In this document: positions 25,177 to 57,791 of the stretch, one piece after another
Numbering within the stretch: the first letter of the stretch is position 1
Layout: the number at the start of each line of letters is the position of its first letter
DNA from: Patescibacteria group bacterium
GTDB taxonomy: Bacteria > Patescibacteriota > Patescibacteriia > JAXHNJ01
Assembly (NCBI GenBank): GCA_034520665.1
Contig: JAXHNJ010000003.1
Span: 11,057 to 75,056, forward strand
Direction: 5' to 3'
Length of the DNA: 64,000 nucleotides
Position numbers and translations under genes: made by a program
The notes under the pieces: generated by a model
What the model saw: the letters and a program-made list of their open reading frames with translations, nothing else
What the model was told of the DNA's origin: nothing
Databases searched by the model: none

Positions 25177-25511
25177 GGTTATATTATATATTATTTATAC
25201 TAAATAATAAAGTAATTTATTTATTTAATAAAATTTGATTAAAAAAAAGACCCCGTCAATGTGATCTTGTCTAGATTAGAAATTAATGTTATTCAACAAG
25301 GAATTTATCCCAAAACATCTTTGAAACGAGAAATTATTTTTGTATAAATAAAAATTGAATGGACAAATTTTCTGAAGGCTAGTTAGGGCACTCTATTTTA
25401 AAACATCTAGCCGAATTATGAATGGTCGAAAACCCGGAGGCAAGGATTCTATTTTTGATATTAGGCGGGATAAAGAATAAACCGCTAAACAAATTATTAA
25501 ACTTCTCAAAT

Positions 25512-25688
25512 CCGAGAAGCGCGGATCTCCTGATCCGCGTCACCTTATTCGGTTGGATCAGGAGATCCAACCTTCTCGAGCAAAAATAGATTATTAAATC
25601 TCTAATTCACCGAGAAGCTCTGGCCCCCAGGCCTTGAGCTTAGTAAATATATTGCCAGAACCGGTCTGGGGACCAGTTCTTTTCGCGA
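25512..25688 (+). pseudogene. about 177-nt repeat: two hairpins (cgcggatc/gatccgcg; ggttggatc/gatccaacc) followed by a roughly 100-nt sense fragment of the RAYT gene
   Basis: Identical to 42477-42653. The 3' 100 nt align with the reverse complement of 51604-51700 (the RAYT ORF region encoding KQIIKSLNHREALAPRPELSKYIARTGLGTGSS); homology decays by about 25735. Confidence 0.7.
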
Positions 25689-25738
25689 TAAAATAATAGA
25701 GTCTTTTAAAAAAGTTTTAAAAAAAACCGAAGATGAAT

Positions 25739-25763
25739 CTGGAGATAAATCTCCAGCTACGCG
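25739..25763 (+). repeat. REP-like palindrome, family 1 (CTGGAGATAAATCTCCAG + CTACGCG)
   Basis: Perfect 8-bp arms ctggagat/atctccag followed by ctacgcg (GTAG on the other strand). Identical copies at 41561-41585 and 41654-41678. Confidence 0.8.
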
Positions 25764-25833
25764 GAATGAGGATGGATTGAAAACCAAAGATAAATCAACA
25801 GCGGTTCAAAAAGAAGAAAAACCTTCTACTCAA

Positions 25834-25899
25834 CGCGTAGGCAAAAGATTTATCTCCGCCTTTAAATAAAATCGCCTAGGCGGGAATCCCTATTCCCGC
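25834..25899 (-). repeat. composite repeat, family 3 (degenerate REP cgcgtaggcaaaagatttatctccgcc plus cgcctaggcg and gggaat/attccc hairpins)
   Basis: Near-identical 66-nt unit at 42282-42347. Confidence 0.7.
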
Positions 25900-26046
25900 A
25901 ATACATTAACAATAATCATAACCTTAAAAAGAATATATTTAGCCAATCAATATTATTTTATAATCAAATTTTTACGACAAAAGCCTAGATGTTATTCGCT
26001 TCCTCAAAGATAAACCCACCTCTCAAAAAGAAGCGATCACTAAACA

Positions 26047-41285: not shown

Positions 41286-41560
41286 TTTAATGAATCCTGA
41301 ATAGAAATCTGATGCTTAGACAGGTATTGAGTCTCCCGGATAATATCTGCTAAACACGCCATTTTTTGCGTAAGCGGAGATTTATTCCCGCTATTTTTAA
41401 TAAGAAATGAGTGTTTGGTAAATTGAAAAATAAAATTTATATACAAAGAATAATTTATGCCAAATTATTATTAATACCCTAAATTATACCAAAAAGAAGT
41501 TTAATTATCTTCTTAATGCTTATGTAATTATGATAAAACAGGCTCATTTAATTTTGACAT

Positions 41561-41585
41561 CTGGAGATAAATCTCCAGCTACGCG
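41561..41585 (+). repeat. REP-like palindrome, family 1
   Basis: ctggagataaatctccagctacgcg. Confidence 0.8.
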
Positions 41586-41594
41586 GTTGGAGAG

Positions 41595-41652
41595 GTGGAG
41601 ATGGGGATCTGAACCAGAGTCGCGCTAAGCGCGACTTACTAAATAAGATATA
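41595..41652 (+). repeat. 58-nt repeat with agtcgcgc-taa-gcgcgact palindrome
   Basis: gtggagatggggatctgaaccagagtcgcgctaagcgcgacttactaaataagatata; second copy at 42808-42865. Confidence 0.7.
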
Positions 41653-41653
41653 T

Positions 41654-41678
41654 CTGGAGATAAATCTCCAGCTACGCG
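41654..41678 (+). repeat. REP-like palindrome, family 1
   Basis: ctggagataaatctccagctacgcg. Confidence 0.8.
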
Positions 41679-41725
41679 ATTGGAGAGGTTTGTTTACGAG
41701 TAGGTAAAAGATTTATCTCCGCTAA

Positions 41726-41835
41726 TTTACCAAGAAGTCTGAACTTAGTAAATATATTGCCAGAACCGGTCTGGGGACCAGTTCTTCTCGCGAAAAAATC
41801 TTTTTTAAAATATCGCCATATGAATGTTGCGCCAA
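41726..41835 (+). pseudogene. third, internally deleted RAYT-fragment copy plus shared 3' extension (cttttttaaaatatcgccatatgaatgttgcgcc)
   Basis: Matches 42570-42701 except for a deletion of about 20 nt; the 3' extension motif occurs again at 42150-42192. Confidence 0.6.
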
Positions 41836-41883
41836 ATTATATTTTATATTATTTAATAGCCTGGCGCCGGATTTATCCGGCGA

Positions 41884-42150
41884 TTTATGTTTTGCTAATT
41901 GGTTATGGTTATAGCAGCTAGTAAGGTTTTGGTTGTGGGTTTGGAATAAAAAACCATTGACTCAGCCTAATAACCAAACTAGCGGCTCGGCCCAAAACCC
42001 TCTTTTTTGCTAATTGGTTATGGTTATAGCAGCTAGTAAGGTTTTGGTGGTGGGTTTGGAATAAAAAAACCATTGACTCAGCCTAATAACCAAACTAGCG
42101 GCTCGGCCCAAAGCACTTTGTTTTAAGGCTAATTGGTTTATACTTGTGGA
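41884..42150 (+). repeat. tandem direct repeat, about 124-nt unit, 2.2 copies
   Basis: Unit tgctaattggttatggttatagcagctagtaaggttttggt.gtgggtttggaataaaaaaccattgactcagcctaataaccaaactagcggctcggcccaaa...; copies about 95% identical. Confidence 0.75.
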
Positions 42151-42281
42151 GTAATCTTTTTAAAATGTCGCCATATAAATGTTGCGCCAGGAAATAATAT
42201 TATTCTAATCTCTCTGGCGCCGGCTTCTAAGCCAGTGCTATAAGTTTGTATATTAAAAAATAGAATCTAATTACTTTCTAT

Positions 42282-42347
42282 CGCCTAGGCAAAAGATTTA
42301 TCTCCGCGTTTAAATAAAATCGCCTAGGCAGAAATCTCTATTCCCGC
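42282..42347 (-). repeat. composite repeat, family 3, second copy
   Basis: cgcctaggcaaaagatttatctccgcgtttaaataaaatcgcctaggcagaaatctctattcccgc. Confidence 0.7.
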
Positions 42348-42476
42348 TATATATTAAATATTCAAATAGTATGCTTTTGTTTAAATTTATTTTAATATCG
42401 ATAAATCAGGCGTAGAGGCGGGTCATGGCCCGCACCGCCTTATAAAACAAACTGCCAAGGAAACCCTTAAAATTAC

Positions 42477-42653
42477 CCGAGAAGCGCGGATCTCCTGATC
42501 CGCGTCACCTTATTCGGTTGGATCAGGAGATCCAACCTTCTCGAGCAAAAATAGATTATTAAATCTCTAATTCACCGAGAAGCTCTGGCCCCCAGGCCTT
42601 GAGCTTAGTAAATATATTGCCAGAACCGGTCTGGGGACCAGTTCTTTTCGCGA
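42477..42653 (+). pseudogene. second copy of the 177-nt hairpin plus RAYT-fragment repeat
   Basis: Nearly identical to 25512-25688. Confidence 0.7.
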
Positions 42654-42950
42654 AAAAACCTTTTTTAAAATATCGCCATATGAATGTTGCGCCGGGTTGT
42701 ATTTTAAATTATTAAACCTTCTGTGAACGAATTTATTCGGCGCTATGTTCTTAAAAAAAATGATACATTCTCACGCTTTCGCGTGGACACCACTTACTAT
42801 TGTTAAAGTGGAGATGGGGATCTGAACCACAGTCGCGCTAAGCGCGACTTACTAAATAAGATATAGAAAAGATCAGGGAGGAAATTAAAAAAGAGCTTGG
42901 TTTTTAAGCTCAAATTTTTTTCCCAAGGCTGTGGTAAACACAGCCTTTTT

Positions 42951-51360: not shown

Positions 51361-51816
51361 TTATTCAATCTTTAAAATACTCTCATCCTCCATATAATAA
51401 TTCCGAAAACTTGAATATTTATAATCGGCTGCGTTTTTAACCAATTTGGCCCGGACAGGGTTAAAGTGGATGTAATCTAATTTTTGTTTTAAAAATTTCA
51501 TAGAAAAAATATTTTCTATCCAGTTGCGGCTTTGCCAGAGTTTGTAATTTTGATTATTAATATTTTGAGCGCCTTTTTTAAAACACTTTATTATTTTACT
51601 AGGAGAAGAACCGGTCCCCAGACCGGTTCTGGCTATATATTTACTAAGCTCAGGCCTGGGGGCCAGAGCTTCTCGGTGATTTAGAGATTTAATAATCTGT
51701 TTAGCGGTAAATTCTTTAAAATCGCGCATAATGTCCGATATAGAATTTTTACCCTGTGGCCAAATAATTGTGTGTAAATGATTAGCAGAGATAAATCTTT
51801 TGTCTACGCGGTTTTA
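51361..51816 (-). pseudogene. REP-associated tyrosine transposase (RAYT) / IS200-like HUH Y1 transposase, 5'-truncated
   Basis: The ORF-track protein (51361-51729) carries the RAYT C-terminal signature LWQSRNW...DYIHFNPVRAKLVKNAADYKYSS with the catalytic Tyr. Reading upstream in frame gives ...SANHLHTIIWPQGKNSISDIM with the HUH motif (HLHTII), but no start codon before a stop at 51817-51819. The 5' end runs into REP-like palindromes. Confidence 0.65.
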
Positions 51817-51848
51817 TTTAAGAGCGGAGATAAATCTCCGCCTACGCG
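51784..51848 (+). repeat. two REP-like palindromes (variant cagagataaatcttttgtctacgcg, then gcggagataaatctccgcctacgcg) at the truncated 5' end of the RAYT pseudogene
   Basis: Same half-site GAGATAAATCT and a trailing CTACGCG. Confidence 0.75.
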
Positions 51849-51959
51849 TGAGAAAAAATTTTTATTTTTCGATATCCGTGAAACCGGTAATCTTTTGCTT
51901 ACGCGTAAACAAACATCCCTATCCGTATAGGTGGAGATCTCTATCTCTAACTCTTCAAA

Positions 51960-52041
51960 CGCGTAGCTGGAGATTTATCTCCAGATTTATATCCAGATTT
52001 CAATTCATCCTCATTACGCGTAGCTGGAGATTTATCTTCAA
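51960..52041 (-). repeat. two inverted-orientation REP copies (cgcgtagctggagatttatctccag, then cgcgtagctggagatttatcttca)
   Basis: Reverse complement of family 1, with GTAG leading the palindrome. Together with 51784-51848 this forms an inverted REP pair (REPIN-like) about 110 nt apart. Confidence 0.75.
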
Positions 52042-52343
52042 AGTTTAGAATAATTAATTTTCAAATATCTTATTAGCTGAACAAGTTCAGCACACCGCCG
52101 GCCTTTTTATCAAATTTCAGCTGGATAAGTTCAGCACACCGCCGGCTGTTTAATTAAATAACTCCTTAAGGTTAGCGGCTTCACAAAACTTGTTTTGGGC
52201 AAAAGGTAACTTGATAATTTTCAAACATCTTATTAGCTGAACAAGTTCAGCACACCGCCGGCCTTTTTATTAAATAGTTTGCTTTATACTAGGTAGATGC
52301 GGGTCATGGCCCTCATCTACGCCTGGTTTATTGTTTAATAATT

Positions 52344-53363
52344 TTATTTTTTATAGTGCTTTTCTTCCCATTGCTTAAAATGTTCACCGGATAATATTTT
52401 CTGCCACCAGTCCTGATTATTTTGATACCAGTTTATGGTTTTTTCTAAATTTTCTTTCAAAGAATATTTAGGTTCATAACCCAGTTGGTTTTTAGCTTTA
52501 GACCAGTCCACCGCGTAACGCCGGTCATGACCAGGCCGATCTTTAATATATTCTAAAGAATCTTTTTCTTTTTTATTCATAACTTTTAAAATCTGCCTGA
52601 TTAAATCTAAGTTAGAAATATCTTCGGTCATGCCACCAATGCAGTAAGTCTCCCCGATCTTGCCTTTTGCTAAAACTAAATCAATAGCCCGGCAATGATC
52701 AATGACATAAAGCCAGTCGCGAACATACAATCCATCACCATAGATGGGCACTTTTTTGCCTTTTAATAGATTAGTAATAGCTACCGGTAATAATTTTTCC
52801 GGATATTGATAAGGACCATAATTATTAGAAGTATTGGTAATAGTCACTGGTAAATTAAAAGACTTCCAGTAAGCTCTGACAAGGTGGTCAGAAGCGGCCT
52901 TGGAAGCTGAGTAGGGGCTGTTTGGTTTGAATTGGGTTTGTTCGTTAAATTTTTCTTGAGTATCTAAAGGCAAAGCGCCGTAAACCTCATCCGTAGAAAT
53001 ATGATGAAATCTCTGGCCGCCGTGTTTGACCGCCGCTTCTAGCAATACTTGGGTGCCAATAATATTAGTCTGGGTAAATTCGTGAGCGTAGCCCTGGATT
53101 GACCGGTCAACATGCGACTCAGCGGCAAAATGAATAATAGTATCAATATCTTTGACTAATTCATCGACTAACTTTTTATCACAGATATCCCCTTTGACAA
53201 ATTTATAATTTTTATTTTTTTCAATATCTTTGAGATTAGCCAAATTACCGCAATAAGTTAACTTATCCAGATTAATTATTTCGTCATCTGGATATTTTTT
53301 TAGCCAATAGTGGATAAAGTTAGAGCCGATGAATCCGGCTCCGCCGGTGATTAGTATTTTCAT
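52344..53363 (-). CDS. rmlB: dTDP-glucose 4,6-dehydratase
   Basis: 339 aa. MKILITGGAGFIGSNF, YxxxK (YSASKAASD), extended SDR. Confidence 0.92.
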   Translation of the reverse strand: MKILITGGAGFIGSNFIHYWLKKYPDDEIINLDKLTYCGNLANLKDIEKNKNYKFVKGDICDKKLVDELVKDIDTIIHFAAESHVDRSIQGYAHEFTQTNIIGTQVLLEAAVKHGGQRFHHISTDEVYGALPLDTQEKFNEQTQFKPNSPYSASKAASDHLVRAYWKSFNLPVTITNTSNNYGPYQYPEKLLPVAITNLLKGKKVPIYGDGLYVRDWLYVIDHCRAIDLVLAKGKIGETYCIGGMTEDISNLDLIRQILKVMNKKEKDSLEYIKDRPGHDRRYAVDWSKAKNQLGYEPKYSLKENLEKTINWYQNNQDWWQKILSGEHFKQWEEKHYKK

Positions 53364-53460
53364 GTTGTATTAATAAATTAATTTTTATTATATCTCAATC
53401 TCTTACACCATCTCAAGCGTAGTCGCGTTGGCATAACCTTATTTTCTATTTCATGATTAC

Positions 53461-53516
53461 GCCACTCCCGCCTGCCTTCGCCTAACGGCGAAGCCGTTGT
53501 CGGGCAGGAAAGTGGC
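53461..53516. repeat. nested GC-rich hairpin (gccact/agtggc, cctgcc/ggcagg, ttcgcc/ggcgaa)
   Basis: gccactcccgcctgccttcgcctaacggcgaagccgttgtcgggcaggaaagtggc; three coaxial stems. Confidence 0.6.
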
Positions 53517-53640
53517 TAGGAAAAAAGAAAATATTATTTTCATACGGACTTTAGTCCGGTCTATTTTCTTTACGCCACTATTATAGAGGAAAGATCCATG
53601 TGAATGTTTTAAAGGGATTTCTCTATGTTGTCGACCACCC

Positions 53641-53668
53641 GTAGATGTCAGTCGCGACTGACATCTAC
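53641..53668. repeat. 28-bp perfect palindrome GTAGATGTCAGTCG|CGACTGACATCTAC
   Basis: Exact reverse-complement symmetry over 28 nt; lies in a 486-nt non-coding insert between ahcY and rmlB. Confidence 0.85.
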
Positions 53669-53849
53669 TCTTTAATGATCGGAGGAAATGGGTAAAGGGG
53701 GTAAAAGCGGTCTAAATGGAGTAAAACTGTTATAGGCCTTGCTTGCCGGTGATTAGTAGTTTCATAATATGATAATAAATAAATCTTTTTAGTAGTGTGC
53801 GTAATCGAGACTGCCACGCTCATTTTATTCGCTGGCAGTGACTTTCAGT

Positions 53850-55106
53850 TTATGTGCCGACTGACCACGAAGCTAAATATTTTTTTTGCTCCGGGGTAAG
53901 TTTATCAATTTTCACACCCATAGCTTTTAATTTCATGCTGGCTACTTTTTCATCAATTTTTTGAGGCACGCCATAGACTTTATTAGTCAAATTCTGAGGC
54001 TCCCCGGCCACCCACTGGCAGCAAAGAGCCTGGTTAGCAAAACTCATGTCCATAACTGAAGCCGGATGACCTTCAGCGGCCGCTAAATTAATTAAACGTC
54101 CGCCCGCTAAAACATTAATTTTCTTATTGTTTTTTAAAGTATATTCTTTAACAAAATTTCTGGTGTCACGGCTGGATTTTGCCATCTTCTTTAGAGTTTT
54201 TAAATCTATTTCCACGTCAAAATGACCGGAATTACAGACCACGGCCTCGTTTTTCATCATCTCAAAATGTTTTTTTCTAATAACATTAATATCACCGGTC
54301 AAAGTGATAAAAATATCCCCAATTTTAGCGGCCTCGGCCATGGGCATGACTTGAAAGCCGTCCATAACCGCTTCAATGGCTTTAAGGGGATCAATTTCCG
54401 TGACAATAACATGAGCGCCCAGTCCTTTAGCTCGCATAGCCGCTCCCCGGCCACACCAGCCATAGCCGGCAATAACCACCTTCCGCCCGGCTAATAAAAT
54501 ATTGGTGGCCCGGATGATACCATCCATCGTGCTCTGGCCGGTGCCATAGCGGTTATCAAAAAAGTGTTTGGTGTTAGCGTCATTAACGGCCACTACCGGC
54601 AGTTTTAAGACTTTATTTTTGGCCATGCTTTTTAAGCGAATGACACCGGTAGTAGTTTCCTCCATAGAAGCGTAAATTTGCTTTATTTGGTCTTTTCTTT
54701 GGCGGTGAAGGGTAGACACCAAATCAGCCCCATCATCCAAGGTAATGACTGGTTTTTGGTCTAGAACGGCGTTTAAATGCTGATAATAAGTCTTTTTATT
54801 CTCGTTGTTAATAGCAAAGACCGGAATCTGGGAATTTTTAACCAGAGCGGCCGCTACCTCGTCCTGAGTGGATAATGGATTGGAAGCGCATAAATAAACC
54901 TTAGCCCCGCCAGCCTTTAAAGTGCGCATGAGATTGGCCGTTTCAGAAGTAACATGCAGACAAGCCCCGATTTTCAGGCCCTTTAAGGGTTTACTTTTTT
55001 TAAAATCATTTTTTATCTGGCGCAAAACATCCATTTGTTTTTCGGCCCACTCAATTCTAATTTCGCCTTGTTTGGCTAATTTAATCGATTTAATGTCGTA
55101 GTTCAT
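53850..55106 (-). CDS. ahcY: adenosylhomocysteinase
   Basis: 418 aa. NAD-binding GYGWCGRG and a conserved AdoHcyase C-terminus. Confidence 0.93.
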   Translation of the reverse strand: MNYDIKSIKLAKQGEIRIEWAEKQMDVLRQIKNDFKKSKPLKGLKIGACLHVTSETANLMRTLKAGGAKVYLCASNPLSTQDEVAAALVKNSQIPVFAINNENKKTYYQHLNAVLDQKPVITLDDGADLVSTLHRQRKDQIKQIYASMEETTTGVIRLKSMAKNKVLKLPVVAVNDANTKHFFDNRYGTGQSTMDGIIRATNILLAGRKVVIAGYGWCGRGAAMRAKGLGAHVIVTEIDPLKAIEAVMDGFQVMPMAEAAKIGDIFITLTGDINVIRKKHFEMMKNEAVVCNSGHFDVEIDLKTLKKMAKSSRDTRNFVKEYTLKNNKKINVLAGGRLINLAAAEGHPASVMDMSFANQALCCQWVAGEPQNLTNKVYGVPQKIDEKVASMKLKAMGVKIDKLTPEQKKYLASWSVGT

Positions 55107-56834: not shown

Positions 56835-57791
56835 ATGTCAAAAATATTAATGACTGGCGGAGCTGGATTCATCGGCTCTAATGTCAGTAAAAAACTTTTA
56901 AAAAGAGGTAATCAAATTGTCTGTGTTGATGATTTTAATGATTATTATAACCCAAAATTAAAAGAAGACCGAATAAAAATATTTCTTAAAGATTATAAAT
57001 TTCCGGTATACCGAGTGGATATCAGAAATTATACCAGTTTAAAAGAAATTTTTGAAAAAGAAAATATTGACAAAATTTGCCATTTGGCGGCCCGGGCCGG
57101 GGTCCGAGCTTCTATTGAAGATCCTTTTATCTATCAAGAAACTAATATTAAAGGTACTTTAAATCTTTTAGAATTAGCTAAAGAATATAAAATAAAAGAT
57201 TTTATTTACGCTTCTTCTTCTTCAGTTTACGGCGGTAATACTAAAATTCCTTTTGCTGAAAAAGACTCAGTTGACGCCCCTATTTCCCTTTACGCCGCCA
57301 GTAAAAAAGCTGATGAGTTGATGGCTCATGTCTATCATAATCTCTATAATTTAAATTGCACTGGTCTCCGCTTTTTCACGGTTTATGGGCCTTGGGGTCG
57401 GCCGGATATGGCCCCGATAAAATTTGCGAAATTAATTTCTAATGATAAACCAATCGATGTTTACAATTATGGCAAGCACGAAAGAGATTTTACCTATATT
57501 GACGATATAGTTCAGGGAACTGTCGCGGCCCTTGACCACCCTTTCCCTTACGAAGTTATAAATCTTGGTAACTCAAATACTGTTAAGCTTGAATATTTTA
57601 TTTCCTTACTCGAAAAAGAGCTCGGCAAAAAAGCCCAAAAAAATATGCTTTCAAAGCAACCCGGCGATATGGAAATAACTAACGCCGATATCACAAAAGC
57701 AAAATCACTTTTAGAATTCGAGCCAAAAACAAATATTGAAGAAGGTATAAAAAAATTCATAAATTGGTTCAAGGAATACTATGGAAAATAA
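56835..57791 (+). CDS. NAD-dependent sugar nucleotide epimerase/dehydratase (extended SDR, UDP-GlcA epimerase-like)
   Basis: 318 aa. TGGAGFIGSN, YAASKKADE (YxxxK). Confidence 0.85.
   Translation: MSKILMTGGAGFIGSNVSKKLLKRGNQIVCVDDFNDYYNPKLKEDRIKIFLKDYKFPVYRVDIRNYTSLKEIFEKENIDKICHLAARAGVRASIEDPFIYQETNIKGTLNLLELAKEYKIKDFIYASSSSVYGGNTKIPFAEKDSVDAPISLYAASKKADELMAHVYHNLYNLNCTGLRFFTVYGPWGRPDMAPIKFAKLISNDKPIDVYNYGKHERDFTYIDDIVQGTVAALDHPFPYEVINLGNSNTVKLEYFISLLEKELGKKAQKNMLSKQPGDMEITNADITKAKSLLEFEPKTNIEEGIKKFINWFKEYYGK

Follow-up and report, generated by a model that had tools for sequence, protein, structure and literature searches.

Among the described systems closest to the locus studied here are the repetitive extragenic palindromes (REPs) and bacterial interspersed mosaic elements (BIMEs), reportedly linked to REP-associated tyrosine transposases (RAYTs), and the REPINs. 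Others are IS608, which inserts 3′ of TTAC without duplication, and the dusA-specific integrative elements, which rebuild the target gene at its 5′ end. The locus in question is the spacer in front of rmlB, the gene for dTDP-glucose 4,6-dehydratase, in a 64,000-nucleotide stretch of DNA from a Patescibacteria group bacterium (contig JAXHNJ010000003.1, positions 11,057–75,056; G+C = 34.6%), which was analysed as a whole and is referred to below as the window. The spacer contains a diverged second copy of the rmlB start within a segment of 285 nt, and this segment looks like small mobile DNA, not like a new system.

The intact rmlB gene (52344–53363, minus strand, 339 aa; PF16363 8.8e-84, PF01370 1.6e-65) is separated from its upstream same-strand neighbour ahcY, the S-adenosylhomocysteine hydrolase gene (53850–55106, minus strand), by 486 nt (53364–53849). 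A direct repeat links the rmlB start to the far side of this spacer, with 36 of 44 nt identical (82%) between 53343–53386 and 53745–53788, above the limit of about 75% that had been set beforehand for refuting the duplication proposed in the initial annotation. The reference copy, S (53343–53398, minus strand), is the native rmlB leader with the first 21 coding bases; the second, S′ (53731–53800, minus strand), is a pseudo-start made of a diverged rmlB leader and seven codons. The 44 nt of the repeat consist of 21 nt of coding sequence and 23 nt of leader, and weaker similarity extends out to about 53398 and 53800. The coding core, ATGAAA[A/C]TACTAATCACCGGC on the minus strand (MK[I/L]LITG), matches at 20 of 21 positions, and a whole-window self-BLAST returned the pair with E = 1.6e-4. 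S′ opens an 11-codon open reading frame (ORF), MKLLITGKQGL followed by a stop (53766–53731), in which the similarity to rmlB ends after ITG.

Starts of short-chain dehydrogenase/reductase (SDR) genes are alike even between paralogues, as seen for rmlB and a divergent epimerase gene at 56841, and an empirical null was therefore built from the gene starts of the window, in which the regions from −23 to +21 of 55 starts were compared in 1485 pairs. The two SDR starts in question (53320–53360 and 56841–56881) are 90% identical over 41 nt, with identical codon choices through GGAGFIG, in proteins that are only about 31% identical. The maximum in the null was 30/44, with 0 of the 1485 pairs at 36/44, and a leader identity of at least 16/23 was reached by 0.5% of the pairs. 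Since the null never reaches 36/44, S′ is genuinely related to the rmlB leader and start, and far more like them than like any other start in the window. The mismatches between the two copies are unevenly spread, with 1 among the 21 coding bases and 7 among the 23 leader bases, which suggests that S′ acquired its changes at another location, as a start still in use, and not by decay in its present place. A third, short look-alike of the rmlB start on the minus strand (53527–53544; ATGAAAATAATA as compared with ATGAAAATACTA, 11/12) is located close to the end of the 285-nt segment that faces rmlB; the sequence is AT-rich, and the match may have arisen by chance.

The closest rmlB protein in the collections searched has 77% identity, and with no relative above this value a DNA alignment of the spacer was impossible, so that the architecture of the ahcY–rmlB junction was compared instead. 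In the relative with the 77% protein (L085), the ahcY stop is found 3 nt before the rmlB ATG; in a second (L086, rmlB 73%) the spacer is 103 nt long (L086:1067–1169) and contains two hairpins in tandem, GGCGGGATTTGTAATCCCGCC and GGTCGGATTTATAATCCGCCC, and a third (L002, rmlB 71%) is fully syntenic with a spacer of 196 nt and no duplication. Given relatives' spacers of 3, 103, and 196 nt, the 486-nt spacer of the window is enlarged, short or empty spacers being the norm. The proposal of extra DNA before rmlB is supported, and part of this DNA behaves as an insertion, which would lie outside the gene, within the foot of a hairpin, as described below. BLAST of the spacer against 85 rmlB loci gave no match, and the window insert aligned at chance level with the insert of a further relative (L083) and with the spacers of L002, L086, and L088. 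A scan of the 85 loci for displaced starts found only L083/L084; in L083 an MBOAT gene and a DltD-like gene lie between ahcY and rmlB (L083:2259–4649).

The limits of the extra DNA were located with the aid of two independent Logan contigs from sibling runs. One of these (L001, SRR26473339) is 100% identical to 52241–53515 and stops there, and the other (L082, SRR26473340) is a 100% match from within the rmlC-like gene through ahcY and ends at 53801, such that neither crosses 53516–53800. That these contigs end at branch points of the assembly graph can be seen from the far end of L001, which sits exactly 30 nt (k − 1, with k = 31) inside a 44-nt exact repeat (52227–52270). At 53515 and 53801 the contig ends are instead flush with the segment and not 30 nt inside it, as expected if there were two alternative continuations at that base; a multi-copy repeat at a fixed site would allow a 30-nt run-in. 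On the gene strand, the junctions read ..CTCGATTAC followed by GCACAC.. and ..CCTAG followed by CCACTTT.., with the segment directly 3′ of TTAC; neither a target duplication nor flanking direct repeats are present at these putative junctions.

The rmlB-proximal boundary coincides with the foot of a GC-rich three-way hairpin, H (53461–53516; DNA fold −18.7 kcal/mol, z about −4), which lies inside L001. The 10 nt immediately across the segment, GTAATCGAGA (53801–53810), are complementary to TCATGATTAC (53451–53460), with 9/10 positions pairing, one of them as G·T, in register with the outer stem that H has at present, and are thus a candidate outer stem for the hairpin without the insertion. When the segment is removed and 53515 is joined to 53801, the predicted RNA fold is −36.8 kcal/mol as compared with −30.8, and the DNA fold is −21.0 as compared with −18.7 (z = −5.15 and −4.24, respectively). 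The hexamer GTAATC, of which we estimate that about 0.1 would be expected in the 333 nt available, is present once, exactly where L082 stops. From the contig ends at 53515 and 53801 and the restored complementarity of the stem, we infer that the 285 nt from 53516 to 53800 were inserted into the 3′ foot of the native hairpin H and that some cells of the source population would be without it, as a presence/absence polymorphism. The outer stem of H would originally have been about 9 bp longer, and the junction of the empty site would read AAAGTGG joined to GTAATCGAG.

This placement, about 150 nt upstream of the rmlB ATG, changes the interpretation of the repeat. S′ is found inside the segment, 0–12 nt from its ahcY-proximal end, and S about 120–130 nt beyond the far end. 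A sigma-70-like promoter match on the minus strand (TTGAGA-18-TATAAT, 11/12, a consensus match only; 53387–53416) lies 24 nt upstream of the rmlB ATG and is also outside the inferred insertion. Because S′ lies within the insertion, with the working start and promoter-like site outside it and native, rmlB was probably never interrupted, nor its start regenerated. The initial annotation had pictured a small integrative element with att-like repeats that restored the gene start on integration, and neither part of this is supported: no integrase was found, no direct repeats flank the putative insertion, and the second start lies within it. Its other suggestion, a REP-type insertion followed by duplication, fares better in that REP-like palindromes and RAYT remnants are found nearby, but only one of the two copies lies outside the insert. 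The native layer of the spacer would amount to about 200 nt, with a short hairpin after ahcY, H, the promoter-like site, and the true rmlB start with its leader. The spacer in its present form, all 486 nt, folds more stably than its shuffles (z = −4.25).

The segment itself is rich in hairpins. Module B (53640–53693) is a 28-bp perfect palindrome (GTAGATGTCAGTCGCGACTGACATCTAC; 53641–53668) with a 25-nt flank, and the palindrome is the longest perfect hairpin in the window (DNA fold −11.1 kcal/mol, z = −7.1). Toward the rmlB-proximal end lies D (53545–53558), a short CGGACT/AGTCCG hairpin with a stem of 5–6 bp; the palindrome, the three-tier hairpin, and this ccggact hairpin had all been noted initially and are present as described, and each folds more stably than its shuffles. 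Next to D is F′ (53560–53579), which repeats, with divergence, the left flank of H together with its first six bases (the foot); its native counterpart, F (53446–53466), was found by repeat search and comprises the left flank and the first 6 nt of H (TCTATTTcatgaTTACGCCACT), and the two share a 10-nt exact stretch, TTACGCCACT. Two pieces of the segment, S′ and F′, thus resemble the native rmlB leader region. In terms of their order relative to F and S, both tandem-duplication and circular-permutation models fit the spacing, and the intervening sequences are unrelated. The remaining module, A (53588–53623), has a weak similarity of 78% over 36 nt to positions 1377–1412 of the metagenomic contig described below, and its predicted hairpin is no more stable than shuffles (z = −0.36).

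No coding or RNA gene content was found in this DNA. The longest ORF in the spacer is 52 aa and is not on record in public assemblies, and a six-frame search of the spacer gave no Pfam match and no integrase. The Rfam scan called for in the initial annotation, run on the region at a permissive threshold and on the whole window, identified no family, the only match being a chance one (E = 4.3). A tRNA/tmRNA scan was negative, plasmid and phage collections held no match to the spacer, and the exact palindrome was absent from viral contigs. T-runs follow the spacer hairpins on the plus strand only, opposite to the genes, so that there is no intrinsic terminator for the gene strand.

A metagenome scan with the palindrome returned one unrelated JGI contig (L087), which shares module B over 55 nt at 89% identity with 53640–53693 (palindrome 28/28, E = 1e-12). 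There, module B follows the stop of a GalE-like epimerase gene by 43 nt and precedes a UDP-glucose-dehydrogenase-like gene. On the same contig, the leader and start of the UDP-glucose-dehydrogenase-like gene (ATGACTAGT..) are repeated at 84% identity over 32 nt (44–75 and 1190–1221); one copy is just upstream of the epimerase ATG, and the pair encloses an inverted repeat of 100 nt (71–170) as well as the epimerase and the palindrome. This start duplication echoes the arrangement in the window, and its significance is modest.

Within the window, the pattern GTAGATG-N14-CATCTAC occurs twice, with none expected: in the palindrome (53641–53668) and in a second 28-nt hairpin (52293–52320), 24 nt after the rmlB stop, in agreement with the earlier remark that GTAG again leads such hairpins. 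GTAG-headed CTGGAGAT..ATCTCCAG hairpins recur in the window, as do CGCGTAGCTGGAGAT..ATCTCCAG repeats. A truncated RAYT gene (51361–51800, minus strand; NF047646, 64.6 bits, model positions 57–146) has kept its HUH motif (HLHTII) and lost about 56 N-terminal residues, and an intact orthologue is found in L002 only, at the equivalent position after rmlB (NF047646, 121.6 bits). In total, three zones of RAYT fragments are present (25446–25909, 41393–42742, and 51361–52040), with repeats of up to 99% over 182 nt and with GTAG-headed hairpins (CGCGTAGCTGGAGATTTATCTCCAG). In such surroundings, mosaics of REP/BIME type are to be expected. In the literature searched, nothing was found on RAYT arrangements of this sort in Patescibacteria.

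In comparison with REP/BIME sequences, the window has GTAG-headed intergenic palindromes that form mosaics with other modules, lie near the 3′ ends of genes, have RAYT genes in the vicinity, and show no target duplication. It differs in the very low copy number within 64 kb (one copy of B and two of the GTAGATG type), in the decay of its RAYTs, and in that the unit is a 285-nt composite with a duplicated gene start on board, a trait that REP/BIME elements do not have. The non-autonomous palindrome-associated transposable elements (PATEs) and miniature inverted-repeat transposable elements (MITEs) of the IS200/IS605 group are similar in the lack of an ORF and of target duplication, in the putative position 3′ of TTAC (a single instance), in the location at a hairpin, and in the hairpins inside. 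Unlike these, the segment is without evident subterminal hairpins at both ends, is known from one copy only, and has no known cognate TnpA. It also departs from classical MITEs, having only a weak AT-rich inverted repeat (74%) and no duplication. A partial second 5′ end of a gene beside inserted DNA is shared with the 5′-restoring integrative elements, but the window has no integrase, its repeats do not flank the insertion, and the working start is native.

A further class of start duplication was found in the relatives themselves. In L083 (rmlB 74%), the spacer before rmlB opens with a displaced rmlB start that continues in frame into a GIY-YIG pseudogene. After repair of two stops and a frameshift, the pseudogene matches PF01541 with E = 1.2e-15; it has 1275 homologues at E <= 1e-5. 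Among the best 120 of these, 27 start with an SDR N terminus (..[IL][LV][VI]TGGAGF) followed by TRP[PH]RQRA, and 48 end in ..GSRGG. Six loci were examined (L083:4646–5000, L088:2501–2854, L090:2501–2861, L092:2501–2886, L094:2001–2358, and L095:2001–2359), and in 6/6 a stub and cassette are followed by the full SDR gene. The order, again in 6/6, is host leader and codons from ATG to GF, a GC-rich repeat (ACCCGCCCGCCTCGCCAGCGAGCC), the GIY-YIG ORF, an inverted GC-rich repeat (GGCTCGCGTGGCGGGCGGGT), a stop, 5–37 nt, and the complete SDR gene, whose N terminus duplicates the stub including gene-specific extensions (e.g. MEKELSESTILV and MEKEISNLTVLV in L095). The product takes the form M..VTGGAGF/TRPPRQRA..GIY-YIG..LAGSRGGRVG before the stop, with the insertion point at the GF/IG codons of the Rossmann motif. 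The cassette is widespread and is found in polysaccharide loci. An intact cassette is present in L088 at the ahcY–rmlB junction, the junction studied in the window, and the pseudogenised cassette of L083 is immediately upstream of rmlB, separated from ahcY by the MBOAT and DltD-like genes. A cassette in front of an SDR gene with a duplicated start is the kind of event that was initially envisaged, but no such cassette exists in the window.

The cassettes occupy the same niche, upstream of nucleotide-sugar SDR genes, with the extra DNA headed on its upstream side by the duplicated start and a start-to-start spacing of 354–386 nt as compared with 402 nt in the window. The window differs in having no GIY-YIG ORF or GC-rich cassette repeats, in its break point, and in that its duplication includes the leader. 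A GIY-YIG hidden Markov model built from the 120 homologues and run against six frames of the spacer and window reached no better than E = 0.27, and that on the wrong strand; the L083 GIY-YIG protein had no tblastn match in the window, and an nhmmer profile of four cassettes found SDR starts only, with nothing inside the spacer. The cassette repeats (ACCCGCCCGCC.. and ..GGCGGGCGGGT) aligned with the window at chance level by Smith-Waterman. The idea that hairpin H is made of collapsed cassette inverted repeats was considered and rejected, as GGCRGGCGGG is unique in the window and the Smith-Waterman score against shuffles was at chance level. The cassettes show that selfish DNA has repeatedly settled at the 5′ ends of these SDR genes. 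The literature searched held no description of a GIY-YIG protein fused to a duplicated SDR start in Patescibacteria, and this lead may merit more attention than the finding in the window. If the cassette is a homing element that spares its target by means of a complete adjacent gene copy, it would represent a new selfish-nuclease strategy and, as such, could drive variation in cell-surface sugar loci.

For the 285-nt segment, we put at about even the chance that it is a non-autonomous, MITE-like mobile element of REP/BIME or IS200 type with captured pieces of a host leader, mobilised by an HUH transposase. It would be a mosaic of B, A, D, F′ and, at its ahcY-proximal end, S′, the last two having been picked up during an earlier residence beside an rmlB-type gene. 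A single-strand HUH transposase, for example one of the RAYT kind that has left remnants in the window, would have mobilised it in trans, and it would have inserted into the 3′ foot of H without target duplication. The effect on the host would be limited: rmlB would keep its own start and promoter-like site, the pseudo-start would be dead, strong hairpins would have been added between ahcY and rmlB, and H would have been weakened. No benefit to the host is demonstrated. In terms of annotation, rmlB would then be read as intact with its own start, and the second start as a dead copy on a small, apparently variable insertion. The locus also adds to the evidence that reduced Patescibacteria genomes carry REP/RAYT-type palindromic DNA that is, or recently was, mobile.

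Several observations weigh against a mobile element of this kind. The segment is single-copy within the 64 kb, only one other instance of any of its modules (that in L087) was found in public data, and all RAYT copies in the window look decayed, so that a working transposase would need to be encoded elsewhere. Its ends are poorly defined, with a weak, AT-rich terminal inverted repeat (about 71–74%), hairpin D 29 nt from one end, and a stretch of about 130 nt at the other in which no hairpin lies. The TTAC at the junction, seen once, could be a coincidence. The empty-site haplotype appears in no read or contig and is argued from contig ends and complementarity, and there is no demonstrated mechanism by which an element would carry the start of the very gene now downstream of it. 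A broader possibility, which we consider unlikely, is that the segment is the non-autonomous member of an undescribed class of Patescibacteria selfish DNA upstream of nucleotide-sugar SDR genes, with a copy of the gene's start at its upstream end and with the GIY-YIG cassettes as autonomous members.

The cassettes also lend themselves to the opposite view of the two starts, in which S′ is the original rmlB start and foreign DNA entered at codon 7/8, bringing a new promoter, leader, and start, either by one-ended homologous recombination or as the decayed scar of a GIY-YIG homing cassette. Cassettes with an rmlB N-terminus stub in L088 (intact, at the ahcY–rmlB junction) and L083 (pseudogenised) offer a precedent, the spacing of 354–386 nt is close to 402 nt with stub, cassette, and SDR gene in that order in 6/6 loci, and the mismatch pattern of S and S′ would fit two once-functional starts. 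Nothing in the spacer is cassette-like, however, with the GIY-YIG best E of 0.27, the DNA profile matching SDR starts only, and the inverted repeats and the L083 alignment at chance; the stub ends at ITG and not at the canonical GGAGF/IG site, and the contig ends and stem complementarity put S′ in the 285-nt indel and leave the downstream start native. A displaced native start with a new one supplied, which is the model of the initial annotation, is considered improbable and would require the empty-site reading to be wrong. Another conceivable origin is an internal deletion in a second rmlB-like SDR gene that once stood between ahcY and rmlB, with its first seven codons (S′) and a 3′ untranslated hairpin (B) as the remains. 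The identical palindrome in L087, 43 nt past the stop of an epimerase of the SDR family, the GTAGATG..CATCTAC hairpin that trails the present rmlB, and the extra genes between ahcY and rmlB in L083 would all be in keeping with such a relic. Set against them, no residual SDR coding similarity was detected between the stub and B or elsewhere in the spacer, nor a second rmlB in the window, and a deletion does not predict that removal of 53516–53800 lengthens the stem of H or that two contigs stop there, making this origin a rather improbable one.

A functional role would be attractive in light of the palindrome, identical at 28/28 in two otherwise divergent loci that are both beside nucleotide-sugar genes, and of the strong structure of the spacer: the palindrome could serve as an operator or RNA hairpin, with the 11-codon ORF and the hairpins tuning or insulating rmlB. 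Yet the Rfam scans identified no family, the hairpins lack a following U-run on the gene strand, the closest syntenic relatives are without any of the segment, and it appears dispensable in part of the population, and we regard a regulatory leader as very unlikely. An assembly artefact, with the 285 nt wrongly threaded into the contig of the metagenome-assembled genome from another strain or locus, would account for the lack of an independent contig spanning 53516–53800. It is nonetheless highly doubtful, as the segment and its flanks share no long k-mers, the segment copies nothing else in the window, and a true indel polymorphism would itself produce a branch point at each junction.

The genes around the locus lie in the minus-strand order rmlC-like, pfkB kinase, ahcY, spacer, and rmlB, and beyond rmlB there follow a 600-nt repeat-rich spacer, the truncated RAYT gene, an HD-domain gene, and rmlD. 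In the spacer between rmlB and the RAYT remnant, three terminator-like units (52055–52275) each consist of a AGCTGAACAAGTTCAGC hairpin and then ACACCGCCGGCCTTTTTAT, and two of them share a 44-nt exact block. A repeated hairpin, AGTCGCGCTAAGCGCGACT, is found at 41618–41636 and 42831–42849, with an AGTCGCG core in common with the 28-bp palindrome, and an inverted repeat of 66–76 nt (CGAGAAGCGCGGATCTCCTGATCC..GGATCAGGAGATCCAACCTTCTCG) is present at both 25513–25578 and 42473–42548.

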